Positions 4,630 to 56,986 of a DNA stretch of 64,000 nt are shown piece after piece. The first letter of the stretch is position 1. Every line of letters starts with the position of its first letter. This stretch comes from Candidatus Parcubacteria bacterium (GTDB taxonomy: Bacteria > Patescibacteriota > Minisyncoccia > Phycocordibacterales > PALSA-1337), in contig JBDLTF010000003.1 in the NCBI GenBank assembly GCA_039799225.1, positions 6,606 to 70,605 of the forward strand. Direction: 5' to 3'. The notes below the pieces were generated by a model, which had not been told where the DNA came from, did not search any database, and saw only the letters and a program-made list of their open reading frames with translations. Made by a program: the position numbers and the translations under genes.

Positions 4630-5058
4630 ATGACAACAATAAACCCTTGGATCAACTTTAACGGCAACGCCGAAGAAGCACTCACCTTTTACAAATCAGT
4701 ACTTGGTGGAGAGTTTACGAAGATTATACGTTTCAAAGATCTCGCAAGTGCAGACTTTCAGGTATCAGACGCAGAGGCAGATAAAATCATGTATATCTCA
4801 CTCTCAATTGGTAAGAACAACGTATTGGTAGCAAATGATGTTCCTTCATTTATGGGCAAAGTGAGTGAAAATGAAAATCGAAGTAAGATTTCAGTCAGTG
4901 CAGAGAGCAAAGAGGAAGCAGAGACTATATTGAATGGTCTCTCAGTAGGGGGACAGGTAGAAATGCCATTCGGCGAGAGTGCATGGGGTACTTATTTCAC
5001 TATGTTTAGGGATAAATATGGCATTGAATGGACGATAGAATATTCAGCTGTTAAATAA
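4630..5058 (+). CDS. VOC-superfamily protein, PhnB-like (3-demethylubiquinone-9 3-methyltransferase-like domain family)
   Basis: The N-terminus MTTINPWINFNGNAEEALTFYKSVLGG is the typical opening of PhnB-like glyoxalase-fold proteins. Confidence 0.6.
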   Translation: MTTINPWINFNGNAEEALTFYKSVLGGEFTKIIRFKDLASADFQVSDAEADKIMYISLSIGKNNVLVANDVPSFMGKVSENENRSKISVSAESKEEAETILNGLSVGGQVEMPFGESAWGTYFTMFRDKYGIEWTIEYSAVK

Positions 5059-5063
5059 TATAT

Positions 5064-5282
5064 ATGAGCAAAACATTTACCTGTAAAGAGCTTGGTGGAA
5101 TATGCGAGGAGAATTTCTCCGGCACTACTCTCATGGAAATAGTGCAGAAAGGAATGCAGCACATGCAGTCTGATGAAGCACATATGAAAAAGATTGGTGA
5201 TCTATCAAATACTACTGGCGAGACGAAAGAACAATGGTTTGAACGAATGCAGAAAGAGTTTGACACTAAAGCCGAGAATTAA
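5064..5282 (+). CDS. DUF1059-like small protein
   Basis: 72 aa starting MSKTFTCKELGGICEE, the signature opening of DUF1059 proteins. Confidence 0.5.
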   Translation: MSKTFTCKELGGICEENFSGTTLMEIVQKGMQHMQSDEAHMKKIGDLSNTTGETKEQWFERMQKEFDTKAEN

Positions 5283-5285
5283 ACT

Positions 5286-5543
5286 ATGGCTGTTCCAAAG
5301 AAAAAGGCAGAGGTCATTCGTGGCTTTACCATCAAGTACCATGCAAATGGCAAGACAGTGTGGTCAAAAGGAAAAATAAAAGGTGGAAAGCCGAATGGAT
5401 ACTGGGAATGGTATCGATTGAATGGAACACTCAAACGTTCTGGTAACTTTAAAAATGGAGAGGTTGTAGGCGAATGGATCACTTACGATTCCAAGGGAAA
5501 GGTCTACAAAGTCACGAAAAAGAAAACTGTTGGTTTAAAGTAG
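5286..5543 (+). CDS. Small lysine-rich protein with MORN-variant-like repeats (YwqK-like)
   Basis: Repeated G.K.G.W..Y..NG.L...G..KNGE..GEW units. It is tightly packed between its neighbours with 3-5 nt gaps. Confidence 0.4.
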   Translation: MAVPKKKAEVIRGFTIKYHANGKTVWSKGKIKGGKPNGYWEWYRLNGTLKRSGNFKNGEVVGEWITYDSKGKVYKVTKKKTVGLK

Positions 5544-5547
5544 CATT

Positions 5548-5880
5548 ATGGCAACAAAACAATCTACTATTGATTACCTATTGGATCAGATGTCCGCGGC
5601 TGGCAATATCTCTGCACGCAAGATGTTTGGTGAATATGCTCTGTATTGTGATGGGAAGGTGGTAGCTCTTGTATGTGACGATACCCTCTATGTGAAAATT
5701 ACTGAGCAAGGAAAAGTATTCGTTGACTCTTCATACAAAGAAGGCTGTGCGTACAAGGGAGCAAAACCTTCAATAATGATTGATGAAGAAAAAATCGAGG
5801 ATAGAGAATGGATTACTGAACTTATCCGTATAACCGCTGAAAGTTTACCTCTCCCAAAGCCGAAGAAAAGAAAGAAGTAA
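5548..5880 (+). CDS. TfoX N-terminal domain protein
   Basis: ARKMFGEYALYCDGKVVALVCDDTLYVK matches the TfoX_N core (MFGe.alyv.Gk.fa.v.d..Ly.K). Confidence 0.55.
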   Translation: MATKQSTIDYLLDQMSAAGNISARKMFGEYALYCDGKVVALVCDDTLYVKITEQGKVFVDSSYKEGCAYKGAKPSIMIDEEKIEDREWITELIRITAESLPLPKPKKRKK

Positions 5881-5894
5881 TTTGACCCTACCTC

Positions 5895-6395
5895 CTAGTT
5901 AGACTTTGTATCCACCACATTCTGCAAAATCTGTTCAAACATTGCGGATGCGGCAATAACCACGACTGAACCAAAAGTAATAAGGACACCCATGAAGATT
6001 CCACCCGCAGCATCATCGTTGCCGTGGTTCAACATGATGAAGATTTCTTCTACTAGAACAAAACCAATGATAGTTAGTGCGCAATACTTTATTGTTCGCA
6101 GAGCTTTTACCGCCATTTGAGAGAATACCTTATCCTGCCTGACATATCCCAAGACCTTGAACGCCTGATACACCGCTATGAAAAAAGGAATGGAACCAGC
6201 ATAGACAAGCACCAAGAAAGGATCCTTGAAATAAATCTCAAAGAGCGTGGCATTTATATTCCTGCCCTCAAGCTGAGGTTCCCAAAGCAAAAGAACGAGA
6301 GCTCCAATACCAATGAGTACCGTAACTATTTGAAGAAATATTGTTGAGCTTTTTTTCATAAGTGATTTTGGTGAATTATATTTACAGGTTCCCAC
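5895..6395 (-). CDS. DUF2975-like multi-pass membrane protein
   Basis: Four predicted TM helices in a DUF2975-like arrangement. No other motif recognised. Confidence 0.4.
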   Translation of the reverse strand: MGTCKYNSPKSLMKKSSTIFLQIVTVLIGIGALVLLLWEPQLEGRNINATLFEIYFKDPFLVLVYAGSIPFFIAVYQAFKVLGYVRQDKVFSQMAVKALRTIKYCALTIIGFVLVEEIFIMLNHGNDDAAGGIFMGVLITFGSVVVIAASAMFEQILQNVVDTKSN

Positions 6396-49501: not shown

Positions 49502-50014
49502 TCACTTTTCGCATACTCCCCACAATCCTCTCTGTTCCCTTTTCGTCTCTTGTTCTATATTCCTGAATTCTTTCTGGAATAGGTAGGGTTTTCCGAAAGT
49601 ATATTCACGTGCAAAACCATTCTTGAGTAGATACTCATTCCAGAATGTTCCGTCCTCGAGATATACGTATGCGAGATATCGATCATACTTATCTCGCTCT
49701 TCCCTGTTCGGATTCAATTTCAAGCGCACTGCATGTCCGACCAACATCCTCTTGGTCTCATCTGATGCTTTCTGTCCGTAACACTGCGCCGGTTTGCGCG
49801 GATCGACCGTCTCTGGCGTGTCGATGCCGAGCATGCGGACAGTGATGATATGTTTCTCGATATTTACCTTGAATGTATCTCCGTCCATAACGGATACGAC
49901 CTGATAGAGCTCGTTCTCATTAATAGTTATAACTGACGCGGCATACGCATAGTACCCAGCCACGCACAACACACCCGTAACGACCGAAATCGCCACGATT
50001 TTCTGATATTTCAT
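49502..50014 (-). CDS. Thermonuclease (staphylococcal nuclease homolog), membrane anchored
   Basis: SNase core VMDGDTFKV...RMLGIDTPE...RYLAYVY...G.A, preceded by an N-terminal TM helix. Confidence 0.75.
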   Translation of the reverse strand: MKYQKIVAISVVTGVLCVAGYYAYAASVITINENELYQVVSVMDGDTFKVNIEKHIITVRMLGIDTPETVDPRKPAQCYGQKASDETKRMLVGHAVRLKLNPNREERDKYDRYLAYVYLEDGTFWNEYLLKNGFAREYTFGKPYLFQKEFRNIEQETKREQRGLWGVCEK

Positions 50015-50239: not shown

Positions 50240-50485
50240 TTAATGAGGCAATACCTTCATTAAAACGTCGCTCATAAATCCCATGACCTTCTCTACATAA
50301 AGGTAATTAACAATTTTAGTATAGACAGGAAAGAAATCATAGCGAAAAATAATAGAACCTATCAACACTATAAGAATAGCAACAAAAAGCAACTTAGAAG
50401 GTTTAAATACAAACCGAATTAGTTCCTCGAGTATAGGATTTTGATGATAGTCATTTTTTCTTCTTTTTCTCATGCGGCTTGTCAA
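50240..50485 (-). CDS. Hypothetical small membrane protein (last gene of the TIR cassette)
   Basis: 81 aa with one or two TM helices (LLFVAILIVLIGSIIF). AT-rich. Confidence 0.35.
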   Translation of the reverse strand: MTSRMRKRRKNDYHQNPILEELIRFVFKPSKLLFVAILIVLIGSIIFRYDFFPVYTKIVNYLYVEKVMGFMSDVLMKVLPH

Positions 50486-50494
50486 TAATGTAAC

Positions 50495-51202
50495 TTAGAA
50501 TGTGATATTGTTTTCCACTATCATCCTCCTAAGCTTCCGAAAACCTTCCCAAGCTTTCATATTGCAGTCTTTAATTTTATGAGACCCACAAAAACACTTG
50601 CTTCCGCCATCTACTCTCTCGCCTCTGAATAATACTCTTTCTACTCGTTCCCATGCATGTTTCGCCTTTTTTAATTTACGGATGCAAGCTTTAGCATGTT
50701 CTACTGCCTGTTGAGAATCATAAAATGAATGGAAGGCTCCCGCAGCGCCATGAAGATACTCATCCCATGGCCACGCTTCATGTTCATCATAAAACCGCTG
50801 TCCGTAAAGAAATGGAGTAACTAATTCTTCAATGAACATAGGCAAAGAATAGTTTTTTCTGTTCAAAAAGTCGATTTCTTCCGTTGGTCCACAGAGACAG
50901 GCCTTGCCGACAGGATCTGTATAGAAGTGTCTATCTACATTTGAATTGATTTTTTCATCGAGCACCTTAAGTTTCGGAAGAAAATTCTTATCGGTAGATA
51001 GAGTAATGACGACGCCATATGAACCTGACAAAATAACTCCAGAAGCCGTTTGATCGCGAAGGGTGAGAGGTGTGAAGGTGTTGTTTGCTTCGTCATATGC
51101 ACCAGAGAATATAAACTCTCCCAAAATCTCCGTTTCATCATCGTTAAACTTTAACGTCGGATGATGTATGATCAACCATTCTTTATCGGCCTCGGTTACC
51201 AT
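50495..51202 (-). CDS. Hypothetical protein with two C(L/F)CG motifs immediately downstream of the TIR gene; candidate effector of unknown fold
   Basis: No recognisable SIR2, Macro, SLOG or nuclease motif. Contains GKACLCGPTEE and GSKCFCGSHKIKDC. Its start overlaps the end of the TIR gene by about 20 nt, suggesting translational coupling. Confidence 0.4.
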   Translation of the reverse strand: MVTEADKEWLIIHHPTLKFNDDETEILGEFIFSGAYDEANNTFTPLTLRDQTASGVILSGSYGVVITLSTDKNFLPKLKVLDEKINSNVDRHFYTDPVGKACLCGPTEEIDFLNRKNYSLPMFIEELVTPFLYGQRFYDEHEAWPWDEYLHGAAGAFHSFYDSQQAVEHAKACIRKLKKAKHAWERVERVLFRGERVDGGSKCFCGSHKIKDCNMKAWEGFRKLRRMIVENNITF

Positions 51203-51797
51203 GATTGTTATCACCCCATGGACGTGTAGGTGTAAAAGAGCTTCCTGTCGCATAAGTTGCCACCGCAACTGATCCAGTAGACATATGAGTGCTTGCTTTC
51301 AGTTTCGTCTCTCCTTTGTGATCTGTTCGTGTTTGGAAAGCATCTTCTCCCCACTGTCCAAGATTTTTGATGCCGTTATCCATCACCCAGTCATAGACTT
51401 TACAGATTGAGGAGAGAGGAGTTCCATCAGCAAGAATGATTTTGTCGAATGGATTTTGTCCTGCAACGTCAGTTTTACTATCGAGATTTTTTACATTGTG
51501 AATTTGGACTCCAACCAATCCATTCCCACGCTCCCAACTCTGACGAATCTCGTAGCGTACCCAGTCGCGCTCAGAGGTTTCTGCGCCGATGAGAACGACG
51601 GTAACAGATGTAGATTTAAGCTGATCGTTAATCCATCGCTTGATTGCATCTGGCCCTTGTTGTTCGATCTTTTCCCATTCTACGGAATCTATGACGCCGT
51701 ACTCGTCTTGATCGGCGATGGCGTGGCTATTACGTACCTGAGCCGCTCGTTGCGAATCTCGTTCGTAATGAAAACTGTAAAATGTTTTTCGTGCCAT
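51183..51797 (-). CDS. thsB: ThsB-like TIR domain protein (DUF1863/TIR-like, Thoeris ThsB family)
   Basis: The N-terminus MARKTFYSFHYERDSQRAAQVRN, TSVTVVLIGAETSERDWVRYEIRQSWERGNGLVGVQIH and NPFDKI align block by block with Bacillus ThsB from memory (MAKRVFFSFHY...VRN; TSVTCVLIGSKTFERRWVRYEI.KS.ERGN...GVHI; NPF). Confidence 0.7.
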   Translation of the reverse strand: MARKTFYSFHYERDSQRAAQVRNSHAIADQDEYGVIDSVEWEKIEQQGPDAIKRWINDQLKSTSVTVVLIGAETSERDWVRYEIRQSWERGNGLVGVQIHNVKNLDSKTDVAGQNPFDKIILADGTPLSSICKVYDWVMDNGIKNLGQWGEDAFQTRTDHKGETKLKASTHMSTGSVAVATYATGSSFTPTRPWGDNNHGNRGR

Positions 51798-51800
51798 ATT

Positions 51801-52193
51801 TTATAGAATTAAAATAATGATAATGTGAATCAGAGCCAAGCCTCCGTAAAAAAGGGTTGCTGTTGTCGAGAAAGCACAACAACCGACTACTCCCAACTTT
51901 TCAAATGATTTTATGTCCATTGAAAAATCTATCTGTTCCGTTGTCTTTTTGCGGACCTCGTCGTACAATTCCCGGAACGCTTTTTCTTTTGAGAGATAAT
52001 AGGCATCCAGGAGCCAGAAGAAGAGAAGCACGCCGAGGGAAGTGAAGATGTATGTGCAGTCAATTTCTTTAAAACTGAGCAACACGAGAGCGCCTATCAC
52101 CGTTACAGTCCATCCCTTCAGCAGAAAGGAGTTACTCGCCATACGGTTGATTGCCTGCTGAACAAAATCCAAATGTTTTAGTTTTGCTTCCAT
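51801..52193 (-). CDS. Small membrane protein (3 predicted TM helices), 4 nt upstream of the TIR gene
   Basis: Three hydrophobic segments (TVTVIGALVLLSF, LGVLLFFWLLDAYYL, ALIHIIIILIL). No known domain. Confidence 0.4.
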   Translation of the reverse strand: MEAKLKHLDFVQQAINRMASNSFLLKGWTVTVIGALVLLSFKEIDCTYIFTSLGVLLFFWLLDAYYLSKEKAFRELYDEVRKKTTEQIDFSMDIKSFEKLGVVGCCAFSTTATLFYGGLALIHIIIILIL

Positions 52194-52199
52194 ATGTTT

Positions 52200-52433
52200 T
52201 TAATGAATACGGTCTTTAGGTGGACAGTCGTCATTTCCGAAACTGTCCTTGTCCTTTATCTGACCCTGTCGGTTATGATAAACTGCTTCTGTTTCATTGT
52301 TCTTCGCAAGCTTGTGCGTCTTATCCTCTGAAGCCGCTTGAGTACGGTGAACAGATACGGGTTTTTCCATTCCTTCCTTTTTTACTGCCCAATCACTTCC
52401 CCAAGGAACACTGTGAAAATTTTTCTTTGCCAT
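52200..52433 (-). CDS. DUF2188 family small protein
   Basis: MAKKNFHSVPWGSDWAVKKEGMEKPVSVHRTQAASEDKTHKLAKNNETEAVYHNRQGQIKDKDSFGNDDCPP matches the DUF2188 consensus (hVVP..dGWAVK.EGa.r.s..h.Tk.eA...g..LAkn...El.iH..dG.I...dSYG.DP.PP). Confidence 0.65.
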   Translation of the reverse strand: MAKKNFHSVPWGSDWAVKKEGMEKPVSVHRTQAASEDKTHKLAKNNETEAVYHNRQGQIKDKDSFGNDDCPPKDRIH

Positions 52434-52577
52434 TTTTTTAAAAAATATGTTAATAAATTTAATAACTTCGCCTTTCCTCTTCTTCCTATGATTTTAATTC
52501 CACTCAATCTATTTGAGTGCTTCGCTCTAGGGGTGTGAGAGATCAACTTGATTACATCTTATCACGACACAATACTT

Positions 52578-52614
52578 TTGAACACTTGCATATGCATGTC
52601 TTACATGTTATATT
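52578..52614 (+). promoter_or_regulatory. Putative sigma-70 promoter of the lexA-like gene with an overlapping 10-bp perfect palindrome (candidate operator)
   Basis: TTGCAT(-35)-17 nt-TATATT(-10) ends 9 nt before the ATG. The palindrome TGCATATGCA (52587..52596) overlaps the -35 hexamer. Confidence 0.4.
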
Positions 52615-52623
52615 ACTAATGAC

Positions 52624-53292
52624 ATGGAAAAAGAAACCCTGACACCGAAGCAGCAGGAATTATATTCTTATCTGAAAGAATATAATGAGAAACATAATGA
52701 TTCACCGACCCTTAAGGAAATGGCTGCATCCATTGGAGCGAACTCGTTGAATAGTGTTGTTCAATATCTTAAAATCCTTGAGAAGAAGAATTATATTTTG
52801 AGGACAAAACATGCACGAAGAAATATTGAACTACGCAAGATGATCTCGTCTGGTCTAATGGAATGGCCAGTTAGTATTCCAGTCATCTCCTCCGTTGGCT
52901 GTGATAATCTAAGTGTCGTCGCGTACGAAGAATATGATGAGTTTATTGATGTTGATAGAAAACTTGTTGAAAATAAAGGTGACGTTGTTGCTGTACGAGC
53001 TGTAGGCAATAGCATGAATGATGCTGACATTCACGACGGTGATTATGTCCTTATTGAGCTAACAGATAATGCAAAAAATGGAGATAGAGTGGCTGCGATT
53101 ATTGGTGATATGGTTACAGTGAAAAAACTAGAGAAAAGAGAAGGTTTGGTAATTTTACGCCCTGAATCAAAGGATCCAAAATACAGGCCAATTATTTTAA
53201 ATGAAGACTTTAAGATCGCTGGAAAAGTAATTTGTGCAATTCCAGGAACAAGTATGGACATCACGGAGGTAGTTCCCATAAGACCACAATAA
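52624..53292 (+). CDS. lexA: LexA-type repressor (winged-HTH plus S24 self-cleaving peptidase)
   Basis: N-terminal LexA DNA-binding pattern (LTPKQQELYSYLKEY...SPTLKEMAASIG.NSLNSVVQYLKILEKKNYI). The S24 catalytic Ser/Lys dyad context is GNSMNDADIHDGDYVLIE...GDMVTVKKL. Confidence 0.8.
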   Translation: MEKETLTPKQQELYSYLKEYNEKHNDSPTLKEMAASIGANSLNSVVQYLKILEKKNYILRTKHARRNIELRKMISSGLMEWPVSIPVISSVGCDNLSVVAYEEYDEFIDVDRKLVENKGDVVAVRAVGNSMNDADIHDGDYVLIELTDNAKNGDRVAAIIGDMVTVKKLEKREGLVILRPESKDPKYRPIILNEDFKIAGKVICAIPGTSMDITEVVPIRPQ

Positions 53293-53296
53293 ATAC

Positions 53297-53662
53297 ATGG
53301 CAAAGAAAAAATTATTTTTGACAGATTTGACGCTTCATTCCAAGGAACATCGTGCTACGCCTAATTTGGAAAAGGCCGAACAAAGAAAGGAAAACGGGTA
53401 TTCTTCTCCGCGTCTATATTCTCCCCAGCTCAACAAGGATGACTTTAAAATATATCCTGATGGAAAGTTTGAAATTATCATAAAGTTGCCTCCCGATATC
53501 CAAAAGGGCTTAGATAGCGGAGAAATCGAAATTGTGATACCAAAAGACGGTCTGCTCGTCTATGCAGGCAAAGATATGATAGAGAAGGCGAAACAGCTTG
53601 AAGAAAAGAAGAGGCGAGAAATTATCCACAGGGGCCGTAGACAAGTTTGGCGTAAAGAGTAG
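53297..53662 (+). CDS. Hypothetical protein (121 aa), co-directional with lexA
   Basis: ORF with a 4-nt spacing from the lexA stop. Lys/Glu-rich. No motif recognised. Confidence 0.35.
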   Translation: MAKKKLFLTDLTLHSKEHRATPNLEKAEQRKENGYSSPRLYSPQLNKDDFKIYPDGKFEIIIKLPPDIQKGLDSGEIEIVIPKDGLLVYAGKDMIEKAKQLEEKKRREIIHRGRRQVWRKE

Positions 53663-53816
53663 AATGTAATTACAATTGAATATTACTGGTGGTGTACCGC
53701 ACTCTGTGCTATGCCCACTTCGTAGGAAAGTCTAAAAGAATCACTCGTTGGTTTTTTAAGTCTTCTTCGCGAAGTGGGCTTTCTCGTTTATTTATTAGTA
53801 ATTATCACTTAATAAT

Positions 53817-55097
53817 ATGAAAAATATAAATTTAGTCTGGCACTCCGAGCGTCGCCAAGTAAGTACACTCAAAGCGTGGGATCGAAATCCTCGCAAGATC
53901 ACAGCGCACAAGTTCAATCAGCTCATCAGGCGCATCAAAAGCCGCGGCTTCCACGATGTCATTAAAATCGATACCGACGGCACTATCCTTTCAGGTAATC
54001 AGCGCAAAAAAGCCTTGATCAAGCTCGACATCAAGGAAGTGAATGTCCTTGTTCCTAACCGCAAGCTCACGGATGAGGAACGCGATCGCATCGGCATTGA
54101 GAGTAACACCAACGACGGCGAATGGGATTACGAGGGTTTGAAGTCCTTTGATCTCGACACACTTACCGACGTCGGCTTTGACACAAACAGCCTTTCTGAA
54201 ATGTGGAGCGAAAACCTCACGGCGGATGATGACGACTTCGATCTTAATGAGGAAATCAAGAAAATAACCGAGCCAAAAACCAAGCTCGGAGATCTCATCG
54301 TCATGGGCAATCATAAGCTGATCTGCGGAGATTCAACCAAACCCGAAGTCCTTAAAAAACTTTTCGGTGATGATCGTGCTTCGATGATATACAGCGACCC
54401 TGTCTTCAACATCAACTACTCATATAAATCAGGATTGGGCAGCAAGAAGAATTATGGTGCAACCGTTAATGACACTCGCACCGACACGGAATACCATGGC
54501 TTCCTGAAAAAGAGCATGGTATGCGCCTTGTCGGTCACGAAACCTGATGCTCATATCTTTTATTGGTCCGACCAATGCTACATATGGCTCATACAGACCC
54601 TGTACCGTGAGCTTAGTATCGAGAACAAACGTGTATGTCTGTGGATCAAGAACGGCTTTAGTCCTACGCCTGCCATAGCGTTCAATAAGTGCTTTGAACC
54701 CTGTATCTACGGAATCCTTGGTCAACCTTATCTCAATGACGGCATCCAAAATCTCAACGAGGTATCTAACGGCAATCTAACTACAGGCAACGACATGCTC
54801 AATCAGATTTCCGACATCTGGGCAGTGAAGCGATTGTCAGCAAAGGACTACGAACACGCCACAAGCAAGCCTCCAAAACTCCATGAAAAAGCGATTCGTC
54901 GCTGTACTCGCCCAGGTGACATTATCTTGGACAGCTTTTCGGGATCGGCAAGTACCATGATTGCGGCCGAGCAGTTGAAGCGTAGGGTTTATGCAGTCGA
55001 GCTTGAACCCCGCTTCTGCGATCTTGCGATCAAAAGGTACGAGAAGCTCACAGGCAAAAAAGCAAAGATAATCCACAACTACCATGAAGAAAAATAA
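53817..55097 (+). CDS. ParB-like nuclease domain fused to a DNA (N6-adenine/N4-cytosine) methyltransferase, phage-type
   Basis: N-terminal ParB/Srx-like block (LKAWDRNPRKI...GFHDVIKIDTDGTILSGNQRKKA). The C-terminal beta-class amino-MTase has motif IV SDPVF before motif I DSFSGSASTMIAA. Confidence 0.7.
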   Translation: MKNINLVWHSERRQVSTLKAWDRNPRKITAHKFNQLIRRIKSRGFHDVIKIDTDGTILSGNQRKKALIKLDIKEVNVLVPNRKLTDEERDRIGIESNTNDGEWDYEGLKSFDLDTLTDVGFDTNSLSEMWSENLTADDDDFDLNEEIKKITEPKTKLGDLIVMGNHKLICGDSTKPEVLKKLFGDDRASMIYSDPVFNINYSYKSGLGSKKNYGATVNDTRTDTEYHGFLKKSMVCALSVTKPDAHIFYWSDQCYIWLIQTLYRELSIENKRVCLWIKNGFSPTPAIAFNKCFEPCIYGILGQPYLNDGIQNLNEVSNGNLTTGNDMLNQISDIWAVKRLSAKDYEHATSKPPKLHEKAIRRCTRPGDIILDSFSGSASTMIAAEQLKRRVYAVELEPRFCDLAIKRYEKLTGKKAKIIHNYHEEK

Positions 55098-55503
55098 AGT
55101 CAAAGATAATTTCCTCGCAGAGTTAAGAAAGATACCAATCGTACAGGTTGCCTGTGAACGCATCGGGATTTCAAGGAATAGTGTCTATCGTTGGAAAAAT
55201 ACCGATGAGGCATTTTCTGATGAAATGGACAGAGCACTCGCAGAGGGAGAGGCATTGGTGAATGACCTCACTGAAAACCAGCTTCTCACCCTCATCAAGG
55301 AAAAGGAGTGGTCAGCCATATCGTTCTGGCTTCGTCATCGTAATCCGAAGTTTAGGGAGCGTGTTGAAATCACGACGAAGATGGAAAGTGACGGCAAGCT
55401 AACAGCTGAGCAAGAATCAATCGTGCGGGAAGCACTACGTCTTTCTGCAGTCACACCTATTCAAATTATTACTGATAAAAAACAAGACAATGAACCAAAA
55501 TAA
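55084..55503 (+). CDS. Phage terminase small subunit (HTH)
   Basis: HTH VACERIGISRNSVYRWKN. It overlaps both the preceding MTase and the following terminase large subunit, the typical terS-terL arrangement. Confidence 0.6.
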   Translation: MKKNKVKDNFLAELRKIPIVQVACERIGISRNSVYRWKNTDEAFSDEMDRALAEGEALVNDLTENQLLTLIKEKEWSAISFWLRHRNPKFRERVEITTKMESDGKLTAEQESIVREALRLSAVTPIQIITDKKQDNEPK

Positions 55504-56986
55504 AGAGATAGCGCAAGAGCTGGTCGAAGCCATGATCAAGGATCAGAAGGTCCGCATAGCGATCACTAAGAAAAGTCATTGGTACTTTTTCCATTTCTAT
55601 TTTGCAAAGTATGTCAAACATGCAACAGCAGAGTTCCAAAGAGAAATTATCCGCCTCACAGAGAACGAGGATATCAAAAATTTCTTCATTGTTGCATTTA
55701 GAGGGTCGGGAAAATCTACCATAATTACGACTTCGTATGTTCTCTGGGCGATTCTTGGAGAGCAGCAGAAAAAATTTATCCTCATTCTAGGTCAGACAAG
55801 AAATCAGACAAAACAATACATGATGAACATCAAGCGAGAGCTTGAAACGAATGATATTCTTAAAAGAGATCTCGGTCCGTTTCAGGAAGAAAGCGATGAG
55901 TGGGGTGCAACCTCTATCGTGTTCTCACAACATAATGCACGAATAACTGTAGCATCAACAGAACAAGGTATTCGCGGGCTGCGACATAATGAGCATCGCC
56001 CCGACCTCATTATTGGGGATGATATCGAAGACCTCAACTCGACAAAAACAAGGGAGAGTCGACAAAAAACTTTTGAGTGGCTCACGGGAGAAGTAATTCC
56101 TGCTGGAGACCAGAATACCCGCCTGATCCTCATCGGAAACCTTCTTCATGAAGACTCTCTCCTTATGAAAATCAGGGAGAAGCTTGAGAAAAAAGAAATG
56201 AAAGGGGTGTTTAAATTCATACCCCTACTTGATTCCGAGGATAAAAGCATGTGGCCAGGGAAATACCCAACCCTTGAATCAATTGAAGAAGAAAAGCAAA
56301 GGACAGGAAGCGAACAATCGTGGCAAAGAGAATACCTCCTCAGGATTATTCCAACTGAGGCGCAAGTGATTCATAAGGAATGGATCCAATACTACGATGT
56401 GTTACCACCGCGAGGTGCTGAAAACTACGAATATACATGGGCAGGAATTGATCTTGCAATATCAGAAAAAACTACAGCAGACTATACCGCGATTGTCGGA
56501 GCGCAAGTGCATGGCAGACGTAAAAAAAGAAAAATATATATTCTTCCTAATCCCATTAATCAGAGGATGCTCTTTCCAGACATTGTTCGGTTGTGCAAAG
56601 ACTATATCAAAAATGTGCTTCATAACGGCAAGCTTGTAATTGAGAGCGTTGCTTTTCAAGCCTCCCTAGCGCAGTTGCTTCATAGCGAAGGTCATTATGT
56701 GGAGGGGGTGCCTGTTCATGGAGACAAGCGATCGAGGCTTGCTATGACCTCATCACTTATACAAAATGGCTTCATACTATTTCCAAAACAAGGAGCGGAA
56801 CAGCTCATTCAGCAGCTTGTCGGATTCGGAGTTGAAAAACATGATGACCTAGTCGATGCTTTTACTCTACTTATTCACAAGCTTATGGAAGAAGATAACC
56901 AACCAAGACCGAATATCGGATGGTTCGATACGCGAACAGGCAGATTTGAGTGGGCGATCAAGTACGATGACGACGAAATCGTGTAG
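55490..56986 (+). CDS. Phage terminase large subunit (ATPase plus nuclease)
   Basis: Walker A FRGSGKST, Walker B-like LIIGDDIED and a C-terminal RNase H-like nuclease region (GIDLAISEKTTADYTAI...VESVAFQ...DDLVDAF). Confidence 0.75.
   Translation: MNQNKEIAQELVEAMIKDQKVRIAITKKSHWYFFHFYFAKYVKHATAEFQREIIRLTENEDIKNFFIVAFRGSGKSTIITTSYVLWAILGEQQKKFILILGQTRNQTKQYMMNIKRELETNDILKRDLGPFQEESDEWGATSIVFSQHNARITVASTEQGIRGLRHNEHRPDLIIGDDIEDLNSTKTRESRQKTFEWLTGEVIPAGDQNTRLILIGNLLHEDSLLMKIREKLEKKEMKGVFKFIPLLDSEDKSMWPGKYPTLESIEEEKQRTGSEQSWQREYLLRIIPTEAQVIHKEWIQYYDVLPPRGAENYEYTWAGIDLAISEKTTADYTAIVGAQVHGRRKKRKIYILPNPINQRMLFPDIVRLCKDYIKNVLHNGKLVIESVAFQASLAQLLHSEGHYVEGVPVHGDKRSRLAMTSSLIQNGFILFPKQGAEQLIQQLVGFGVEKHDDLVDAFTLLIHKLMEEDNQPRPNIGWFDTRTGRFEWAIKYDDDEIV

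Follow-up and report, generated by a model that had tools for sequence, protein, structure and literature searches.

A probable type V-like Thoeris locus with an E2-only enzyme of the E2-CBASS kind in a Candidatus Parcubacteria genome

The window analysed here, a 64,000-nucleotide stretch of contig JBDLTF010000003.1 from a Candidatus Parcubacteria metagenome-assembled genome, contained a minus-strand block of five tightly packed genes at positions 50240-52433, faced by an S24 LexA-type gene on the plus strand at 52624-53292. From the DUF2188 gene through the 130-aa gene, thsB and the 235-aa gene to the 81-aa gene, the intergenic distances were 6 nt, 3 nt, a 20-nt overlap and 9 nt, and the tight spacing reported in the first-pass annotation was thus borne out by the ORF coordinates. 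Homologous cassettes were found in other genomes. Past the repressor lie terS, terL and a ParB-methyltransferase gene, and the same island holds TIR cargo or CBASS cargo.

The two outer genes of the block proved not to be tied to the TIR. The DUF2188 protein (52200-52433, minus strand, 77 aa) matched Pfam DUF2188 (4.3e-14) and PADLOC PDC-S16 (2.8e-24), as had been named from the sequence, while the 81-aa protein at the distal end (50240-50485, minus strand) was a membrane protein as described, with one hydrophobic segment (residues 22-55) and no family match among the Pfam, PADLOC, PHROG and NCBIfam profiles. Homologues of the latter were present in L005/L006 (1.8e-31), and L007, a CBASS version of the cassette, ended in one as well (2.9e-25). 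DUF2188 was also found between the S24 repressor and SAVED-CD-NTase genes in L008-10, and it occurred in 8 of 84 distinct E2 loci, with a LexA-like gene adjacent in 6 of those. Because both proteins also accompany CBASS versions, they are accessories of the island or the repressor and not of the TIR, the DUF2188 protein travelling with the S24 repressor; the description of one five-gene TIR cassette therefore does not hold.

The 204-aa protein (thsB, 51183-51797, minus strand) is a ThsB-type TIR, the predicted signal-generating enzyme, with matches to Pfam ThsB_TIR (PF08937; E 3.1e-26, score 92 bits, cut-off 21), PADLOC ThsB (2.6e-60) and PDC-M50B (3.9e-59). Its TIR domain comprised residues 1 to ~157, and the catalytic-motif glutamate was E83, within WVRYEI, the same string as in Bacillus cereus MSX-D12 ThsB (Table S1, Yirmiya et al. 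2025). Profile searches of the neighbours (Pfam, PADLOC, PHROG, NCBIfam) gave no SIR2, Macro or SLOG match, and no canonical ThsA (SIR2-SLOG or TM-Macro) lies at the locus, in line with the first-pass annotation.

The 130-aa protein (51801-52193, minus strand) had the three transmembrane segments previously noted (residues 22-41, 44-67 and 109-130), and its AF2 model (pLDDT 89) consisted of three long helices. It matched PADLOC PDC-M50A (2.3e-44) and PHROG 19896 (9e-31). Among 80 genome loci with homologues, a TIR of the window clade was adjacent in about 52 and TIRs of other clades in most of the remainder; a triad of this protein with TIR and E2 was found in 13 of the 80, across several phyla, and a SLOG-TM130 fusion exists (P0176). 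The Pfam DUF2270 threshold was not reached by the window protein, and DUF2270 matches to its relatives were sub-threshold only (19/33, best E 3.9e-4). Table S1 of a recent preprint lists "DUF2270 - Type V" as the Thoeris effector ThsF, and the signal of one validated type V system was 3'cADPR (Yirmiya et al. 2025, bioRxiv 10.64898/2025.12.03.692087). Two links tie the 130-aa family to these entries: Table S1 gene 2709899069 has 94% identity to the TIR of L017, which has a homologue of the 130-aa protein upstream, and TIRs with 71% identity to the validated Bacillus sp. 1NLA3E type V ThsB directly adjoin such homologues. Sequence comparison thus places the 130-aa protein in the ThsF family, the type V Thoeris effector.

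As in type V Thoeris (ThsB with ThsF "DUF2270", earlier the PADLOC candidate PDC-M50), a ThsB TIR gene here adjoins the gene of a small protein with three TM helices, the two PADLOC PDC-M50 models match strongly, and many Table S1 rows labelled "DUF2270 - Type V" fall in the same TIR clade. The locus differs in its gene order (effector, then TIR), in having an E2 as third gene and a C-terminal tail on ThsB, in an effector below Pfam's own DUF2270 threshold, and in its host, a Parcubacteria genome. The first-pass annotation had read the locus as a TIR module controlled by the SOS response or prophage induction, with a new effector that would be either the 130-aa TM protein or the 235-aa Cys-motif protein. 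Neighbours free of SIR2, Macro and SLOG and an adjacent, recurrent LexA-type repressor speak for that reading; nevertheless, the effector is not new, since PADLOC (PDC-M50A) and the type V entries in Table S1 already catalogue the 130-aa protein as a TIR partner, and since the other candidate is a UBC-fold E2 that accompanies TIR and CD-NTase enzymes alike in operons having effectors of their own. With these two identifications the new effector is largely refuted, and we regard that reading as very improbable.

The 235-aa protein (50495-51202, minus strand), taken earlier as a candidate effector of unknown fold, is an E2-only (Cap2-short-like) ubiquitin-conjugating-fold enzyme of the kind that regulates CBASS. 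Its length is counted from an ATG that lies within thsB, giving a 20-nt overlap with the 3' end of that gene, and the open frame reaches a TTG at 51268. H92, C102, C104 and H151 were invariant across 23 TIR- and CBASS-linked members, and a C-terminal extension carried a SEC-C-like motif (C203-x-C205...C213). An 88% identical relative stands in a TIR cassette of the same make-up, while relatives at 41-54% identity directly follow CD-NTase genes in SAVED-CD-NTase-E2 operons of syntenic islands. In all 73 distinct enzyme-E2 pairs (59 TIR, 14 CD-NTase) the E2 start lay within ~16 nt of the enzyme stop, and the operons carried their own effectors (SAVED, ThsF or SIR2-SLOG).

The known E2-only system is the E2-CBASS (type II short CBASS) of Serratia marcescens, CdnG/cGAS-E2 (Yan et al., bioRxiv 10.1101/2022.05.25.493364; Xiao et al. 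2026, PMC12948482; PDB 8hsb), in which H87, C101 and H152 of SmE2 are required for tail cleavage, thioester formation and isopeptide reversal. Neither a sequence-level match to the solved SmE2 nor a significant Foldseek match was found for the window family, so H92, C102 and H151 are compared with these residues by position and invariance, with no superposition. The window E2 differs from the Serratia enzyme in its partner (a TIR, not a CD-NTase), in its length (235 aa with the Cys-motif extension, against 159 aa), in lacking sequence-level similarity and in its partner's tail (P-W/H-[C/S/G/A] plus 1-9 residues, against Y-G-E). Thoeris operons with ancillary Cap2 and Cap3 have been described bioinformatically (Yirmiya et al. 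2025, Fig. 6F/S10A, bioRxiv 10.64898/2025.12.03.692087), and these likewise join a ubiquitin-like conjugation module to a Thoeris TIR with a C-terminal tail. Theirs, however, is an E1-E2 fusion (Cap2) with a JAB protease (Cap3), and the last residue of the tail is a conserved Gly, whereas the locus described here has an E2 alone, with neither an E1 adenylation domain nor JAB; an ATP-independent, protease-like activation as in E2-CBASS is therefore implied.

The ThsB C-terminal tail (51186-51326, minus strand, residues 158-204) is a candidate E2 recognition and attachment element. It has 40-odd residues and ends in ATGSSFTPTRPW-G195-DNNHGNRGR, with FTPTRPW directly before G195. The same tail was found on the CD-NTases of the E2-CBASS relatives L007 and L008 (phmmer E 3e-6 to TIR residues 165-204), and the strict pattern P-[W/H]-small residue plus 1-9 residues was present in 70/73 enzyme-E2 pairs. 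When Q was also allowed before W/H, the motif occurred in 48/48 E2-linked TIRs and 0/37 E2-less TIRs among the fetched loci, counts that ignore kinship. This E2 with its matching TIR tail is the most interesting part of the locus, and the first-pass annotation had missed it.

Since the closest diverged E2 relatives (41-54% identity) lie in CBASS operons of syntenic islands, a cargo swap did happen, and the E2 might be a leftover from a CBASS operon in which an unrelated TM-TIR pair took the place of the cyclase and SAVED genes, with no functional tie to the TIR. Against this, the TIR acquired the same tail as those CD-NTases, tail and E2 co-occur perfectly, the catalytic-type E2 residues are invariant, and TIR-E2 is the majority context of the E2 clade (59/73 distinct pairs) with varied effectors and phyla. 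A leftover is very improbable, the least credible of the explanations, and the E2 instead appears to act on the ThsB tail.

How it would do so can be compared with Serratia, where Gly or Ala at the attachment position works and Val or Leu does not (bioRxiv 10.1101/2022.05.25.493364; PMC12948482). The residue following Pro-Trp in the window family is C, S, G, A or T, which fits this rule. The junction is mostly Cys or Ser (C in 38/70, S in 20/70 and G in 5/70 tails) instead of Gly, and is followed by 7-9 residues instead of one, so the tail chemistry may differ. A non-Serratia reaction, such as a Cys/Ser N-to-S/O acyl shift in a self-activating tail or an E2 that attaches ThsB to cellular or phage proteins instead of to itself, would suit this junction, the long extension and the extra ~85-residue C-terminal part of the E2, which is absent from the 159-residue SmE2. 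Ten tails, including that of the window with G195, nevertheless have Gly or Ala at the junction; as these cannot be nucleophiles, a plain requirement for a small residue, like that of Serratia, is simpler, and a different chemistry seems unlikely.

The 222-aa repressor (52624-53292, plus strand) is a genuine LexA-type S24 protein, as first described, with LexA_DNA_bind (winged-helix) and Peptidase_S24 domains and a score of 131 bits for the NCBIfam LexA equivalog TIGR00498 (cut-off 111). S130 (GNSM) and K167 (VTVKKL) were present, and the cleavage-site equivalent was V91-G92, Val-Gly instead of Ala-Gly. The 190-bp divergent region (52434-52623) contained the perfect 10-bp palindrome TGCATATGCA at 52587-52596, 28 nt upstream of the lexA-like ATG, an imperfect palindrome at 52449-52466 and an inverted repeat CACTCAA/TTGAGTG at ~52500-52519. 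The perfect palindrome reported earlier thus exists, but its standing as an operator gained no support: the window held 2 matches at ≤1 mismatch (2.2 expected), it was conserved in a single relative, a near-identical one with 94% identity over the entire intergenic region, and no conserved operator was found across diverged relatives. These elements are candidate operators only.

An S24 repressor was adjacent in 12/21 ThsF-ThsB-E2 loci and 7/10 CBASS-E2 loci with enough flank. It could merely repress a phage-like island, with the cargo placed at the island edge and outside its control, given the terminase and ParB-methylase genes that follow it, the exchangeable TIR or CBASS cargo and the non-significant palindrome. 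Yet the S24 gene lay on the same strand as the cassette in 15 loci (divergent in 4), with minimal gaps in L098 (LexA 575-1213, TM 1217-1609) and L008 (S24 5057-5707, DUF2188 5710-5949), and it was also found beside cassettes with no nearby terminase or methylase (L013, L018, L098). Soil versions lacking S24 carried instead an XRE-HTH and ImmA/IrrE-like protease pair, another DNA-damage-type regulator pair. A repressor serving the island alone is accordingly a minority possibility, though the strongest of the alternatives considered, and control of the cassette is preferred. CapH and CapP, in work attributed to Lau et al. in 2022, are reportedly damage-responsive repressors in the transcriptional control of CBASS. 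The locus resembles that arrangement in having a cleavable repressor encoded next to a signalling defence operon, as do its soil relatives with the XRE-HTH and ImmA/IrrE-like pair; it differs in encoding a one-chain repressor of the LexA-type S24 class with a Val-Gly cleavage site and candidate operators only.

The locus thus probably encodes an anti-phage Thoeris system resembling type V, to which an E2-only regulator of the E2-CBASS kind has been added. The LexA-type S24 repressor would hold the cassette low until self-cleavage on DNA damage or a phage cue relieves it. By homology, ThsB (E83) would then sense infection and turn NAD+ into a cyclic ADP-ribose-type signal, and in the preprint's model this signal would activate the 3-TM ThsF-like protein, which would oligomerise, breach the membrane and abort infection. 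If SmE2/CdnG biochemistry applies, the E2 would recognise the ThsB tail and remove the residues after G195, the small residue past Pro-Trp; the new ThsB C-terminus would be held as a thioester on C102, assisted by H92 and H151, and might be transferred to a lysine, priming or restraining ThsB. Most likely, the E2 clips the tail and joins itself covalently to ThsB, which would adjust how much cADPR-type signal is made to open the membrane effector.

A Thoeris kind that combines a TIR enzyme with a small membrane effector is already described, as is Thoeris with Cap2/Cap3, whereas no description of E2-only Thoeris was found in the literature searched. An E2-like regulator so far known only from CBASS would here join a Thoeris TIR system.

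The ORF map confirmed the arrangement proposed in the first-pass annotation, five minus-strand genes opposite a LexA-type gene. In gene order, the cassette encoded a DUF2188 protein of 77 aa (52200-52433), a ThsF-like protein of 130 aa with three transmembrane (TM) segments (51801-52193), a ThsB TIR protein of 204 aa (51183-51797), an E2 protein of 235 aa (50495-51202) and a single-TM protein of 81 aa (50240-50485), all on the minus strand, with successive gaps of 6, 3, -20 and 9 nt. A stretch of 190 bp separated the cassette from the opposing plus-strand gene, which encoded a LexA-type S24 repressor of 222 aa (52624-53292). The G+C content dropped at 50 kb from about 0.49 to 0.38-0.43. To the left of the cassette lie genes for FtsZ, thioredoxin reductase and a staphylococcal-type nuclease; on the right are those for a ParB-methyltransferase and for both terminase subunits, small and large. 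The 130-aa protein is also on record, in identical form, from a Candidatus Parcubacteria MAG.

The 204-aa protein matched PF08937 (ThsB_TIR/DUF1863) with 92.1 bits against a cut-off of 21.2 (E 3.1e-26) and the PADLOC ThsB model with 2.6e-60, and its earlier reading as a ThsB-type TIR was upheld by both matches; on its sequence, it is a ThsB-type TIR. The catalytic Glu of the W-x-x-x-E motif was intact (E83 within WVRYEI), and the same WVRYEI string occurs in the ThsB of B. cereus MSX-D12 in Table S1 of Yirmiya et al. 2025 (bioRxiv 10.64898/2025.12.03.692087). The TIR domain ended at about residue 157 and was followed by a tail of about 47 residues. Pfam, PADLOC and NCBIfam gave no match to SIR2, SLOG or Macro in any neighbouring protein, in line with the earlier observation that a canonical ThsA was absent from the neighbours. 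The predicted system is accordingly not one of canonical Thoeris types I and II, in which a SIR2-SLOG or TM-Macro ThsA lies beside ThsB.

The 130-aa protein matched PADLOC PDC-M50A (2.3e-44) and the adjoining TIR matched PDC-M50B (3.9e-59), so the pair is already a catalogued candidate system. Hydrophobic segments of the 130-aa protein spanned residues 22-41, 44-67 and 109-130, its AF2 model was made up of helices (pLDDT 89), and its gene lay 3 nt from thsB; as modelled, it is a small three-TM protein beside ThsB, the arrangement of type V Thoeris. Type V has been defined as ThsB with a three-TM 'DUF2270' effector, ThsF; two systems were verified, 3'cADPR was the signal in one, and one type V system gave no response to 3'cADPR (bioRxiv 10.64898/2025.12.03.692087). 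Gene 2709899069 ('DUF2270 - Type V') of Table S1 was 94% identical to the TIR of a relative's locus (L017) in which the neighbouring gene encodes a homologue of the window 130-aa protein. The TIRs directly before homologues of the 130-aa protein in three Bacillales genomes (L037, L044 and L054) were 71% identical to the validated ThsB of Bacillus sp. 1NLA3E. By these matches, the 130-aa family is the partner of TIRs that the authors listed or validated as type V. With regard to PF10028 (DUF2270), nothing was found for the window protein at E<0.1, and no relative reached the gathering score; sub-threshold matches were obtained for 19 of 33 relatives (best E 3.9e-4) and for one of ten further relatives, none of these ten being at threshold. 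The type V link therefore rests on TIR identity and synteny, and the protein is named ThsF-like and not a member of Pfam DUF2270. Given this link and the PDC-M50A match, the suggestion that the effector of the cassette is new did not hold.

A word-indexed search returned 279 clusters for the 130-aa family, and a full profile search returned 5,473 clusters at 50% identity, of which the best 150 were inspected; at least 569 loci were present among species genomes. A TIR of the window's clade was directly adjacent in about 52 of the best 80 genome loci, and TIRs of other clades were found in most of the remaining ones. In one relative (P0176), a SLOG cluster2 sensor domain precedes the three-TM domain in the same chain, and this fusion supports a putative effector-module role for the ThsF-like domain. 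In another relative (P0167), the preceding domain was that of an 8xMP octameric membrane protein.

The 235-aa protein, initially described as being of unknown fold, was found to have the UBC (E2) fold. Seven PADLOC CBASS E2 or E1-E2 models were matched, the best being E2 PDLC00872 (1.2e-29), with six further E2 or E1-E2 models; the identification came from PADLOC only, and Pfam, NCBIfam and PHROGs gave nothing. Searches of solved structures with two E2-family profiles (A1 and A3) returned no E2, only weak matches to SecA zinc peptides (E 0.26). The C-terminal extension of the E2 family (window 50564-50596, residues 203-213) carries a C-x-C-x7-8-C-H motif that bears a weakly supported resemblance to the SecA zinc-binding SEC-C, and SEC-C PF02810 was matched in 4 of 23 E2 members; the window copy has C-N in place of C-H. 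Residues H92, C102, C104, H151, C203 and C205 were invariant in 23 TIR- and CBASS-linked E2s, and C213-H214 nearly so.

The E2 family was scarce in the word-indexed database (11 clusters). The E2 gene directly followed thsB with an overlap of 20 nt (16 nt is typical in relatives), and its partner in the window was the ThsB TIR, not a CD-NTase. No E1 or JAB gene was found in the window operon by ORF map, Pfam or PADLOC. Relatives of the E2 at 41-54% identity were encoded directly after, and overlapping, the CD-NTase gene in SAVED-CD-NTase-E2 operons. A CBASS version of the locus (L007, with an E2 54% identical to that of the window), with the order nuclease, terL, terS, methylase, LexA-type gene and cargo, was syntenic with the window, and SAVED and CD-NTase occupied the place of the window's ThsF and ThsB. 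A groundwater locus (L005) contained the same cassette as the window, with an E2 that was 88% identical. The possibility that the E2 is itself the effector was rejected, as E2s accompany TIR and CD-NTase operons that have effectors of their own.

The two kinds of E2 partner were linked by their tails. With the window TIR as phmmer query, the CD-NTases of L007 and of further CBASS relatives (L008-10) were matched solely via residues 165-204 (E 3e-6). The tail sequences were …ATGSSFTPTRPWGDNNHGNRGR for the TIR and …ATGSSFTPARPWGGNDYDKRSR for the L007 cyclase. The window ThsB tail ends in ...RPW-G195-DNNHGNRGR, with a putative small attachment residue and removable residues after it, as expected for the partner of an E2-only CBASS-type E2. 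Genomes and metagenomes together yielded 73 distinct enzyme-E2 pairs; the enzyme was a TIR in 59 and a CD-NTase in 14. The tail ended in Pro-Trp/His, a small residue and then 1-9 more residues in 70 of the 73 pairs, and the junction residue among these 70 tails was C (38), S (20), G (5), A (5) or T (1). When the pattern was widened to accept Q ahead of W/H, the tail motif was present in 48 of 48 distinct E2-linked TIRs as against 0 of 37 E2-less TIRs, in a comparison not controlled for relatedness. The idea that the E2 is a decayed remnant was discarded, since the catalytic-type residues are invariant and tail and E2 co-occur.

The ThsF-ThsB-E2 triad was found in Patescibacteria, Acidobacteriota, Desulfobulbaceae, Lentisphaeria, Gemmatimonadaceae and Rhizomicrobium. 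In soil/peat metagenomes (L116, L133, L136 and L147), the tail and E2 occurred in operons of a type I-like kind that also encode another ThsB and a ThsA of SIR2 type. These operons adjoin genes for an XRE-HTH protein and an ImmA/IrrE-like metalloprotease (HEIAHIILGHE), which we take to be a CapH/CapP-like regulator pair. In a Zambryskibacteria locus (L015, 5386-6012), a stop splits the ThsB frame into 5386-5535 and 5539-6012 and the E2 is intact; the split marks either a ThsB pseudogene or a fault in the assembly.

In the E2-CBASS of Serratia marcescens, the E2 alone strips the residue or residues after the penultimate Gly of the cyclase, a fused MBP included; a thioester is formed on C101, with H87 needed, and gives way to an isopeptide on K159, the reversal of which is governed by H152, and at the attachment position a Gly-to-Ala change is tolerated, Val and Leu not (bioRxiv 10.1101/2022.05.25.493364; PMC12948482). 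The window's system resembles this one in its E2-only gene, in its invariant His, Cys and His (H92, C102 and H151, similar in position to H87, C101 and H152 of the Serratia enzyme, as compared by residue number and not by sequence alignment or superposition) and in the small G195 with nine removable residues. From these features, it is proposed by analogy that the window E2 would clip the ThsB tail and capture ThsB, which could either prime or restrain it. The prevalence of Cys and Ser at the junction, together with the longer E2, may reflect a modified chemistry.

Descriptions already exist of type V Thoeris, of E2-CBASS and of Thoeris that carries Cap2 and Cap3 (bioRxiv 10.64898/2025.12.03.692087; 10.1101/2022.05.25.493364; PMC12948482). 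The table of the Thoeris preprint holds at least one E2-only Thoeris system, on which the searched parts of the preprint make no comment (bioRxiv 10.64898/2025.12.03.692087), and no description of E2-only Thoeris was found in the searchable literature. We give about an even chance to the reading that E2-only ubiquitin-like regulators are an undescribed Thoeris accessory class, with TIR as the main client in this clade (59 of 73), with clients marked by a portable tail (…GF-x-P-R-x-P-W-[C/S/G/A] and about 8 residues) exchanged between CD-NTases and TIRs and present on type V and type I Thoeris, and with covalent ThsB capture that needs neither E1 nor ATP and is possibly Cys/Ser-adapted.

A gene for DUF2188 (PADLOC PDC-S16) also separates the S24 repressor gene from the SAVED gene in L008-10, and 6 of 8 DUF2188 loci had an adjacent LexA-like gene. 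The preprint lists DUF2188 among putative effectors, in association with another TIR cluster (bioRxiv 10.64898/2025.12.03.692087). The 81-aa protein matched nothing in Pfam, NCBIfam or PHROGs, and a counterpart stands last in the CBASS version L007. The first-pass annotation had placed all the neighbours in one TIR module; recurrence beside TIR genes elsewhere was borne out for the ThsF-like and E2 proteins, but the DUF2188 and 81-aa proteins are, by their predicted homologues, not TIR-specific.

The 222-aa protein matched PF01726 (3.5e-10) and PF00717 (1.1e-22) and passed the LexA equivalog TIGR00498 (131.3 vs 110.95). The Ser-Lys dyad was kept (S130 in GNSM and K167 in VTVKKL), and the cleavage-site equivalent, placed by visual alignment with E. 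coli LexA, was V91-G92 and not A-G. Among loci with enough flank, a LexA-type gene adjoined 12 of 21 ThsF-ThsB-E2 loci and 7 of 10 CBASS-E2 loci; as these genes were mostly co-directional with the cassette, some with gaps of only a few bases, a regulatory tie between the two is plausible. The perfect palindrome reported in the repressor promoter does exist (10 bp, TGCATATGCA, intergenic at 52587-52596), but it was set aside as operator evidence because its frequency is that of chance and it is kept in near-identical relatives only. A DnaA-box-like sequence, TGTGGATAA(C), was seen upstream of LexA-like genes in L008, L020, L022, L027, L028, L032, L069, L081, L083 and L093, and is absent from the window's intergenic region.

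A compact island that encodes a LexA-type repressor, a ParB-N6/N4 methyltransferase and both terminase subunits, small and large, and carries Thoeris or CBASS as cargo, recurs in Patescibacteria-type genomes. It lies at 52624-56986 in the window and was also present in L007, L011, L017, L027, L075, L085, L109, L137, L146 and L161. The window terL shares about 27% identity with the terminases of Mu-like phages. The genes right of terL in the window include those for an M23 peptidase and a DKNYY protein but none for a portal or capsid protein, and no tRNA was found near the cassette; a full prophage was rejected on these grounds. Prophage-induction control of the cassette, which had been suggested before, is not established, given the lack of portal and capsid genes and the absence of the E2 family from IMG/VR viral contigs. 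A staphylococcal-nuclease-family gene flanks the island on differing sides (window 49502-50014, L007 574-1407 and L008 1880-2749) and may be an island member or a marker of a preferred insertion site. The gene that directly follows the LexA-type gene (53297-53662, 121 aa) had no family match and no detectable homologue in the 88%-related L005, where a different 136-aa gene is found instead.

Genomes of the candidate phylum Parcubacteria thus harbour systems of this type on small islands with terminase and methylase genes, next to a LexA-type repressor. If the proposal is true, the syntenic islands with TIR or CBASS cargo and the same E2 would form a natural pair for swap experiments, the tail would offer a rule by which E2 clients can be recognised from sequence, and tail and E2 together would give an experimental handle on how TIR enzymes stay silent or switch on. 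If ThsB is indeed processed and captured by the E2, control of the ubiquitin-like kind would not be peculiar to cGAS-like cyclases, and the E2 would be a plug-in regulator moved between unrelated immune signal enzymes by transfer of a short tail.
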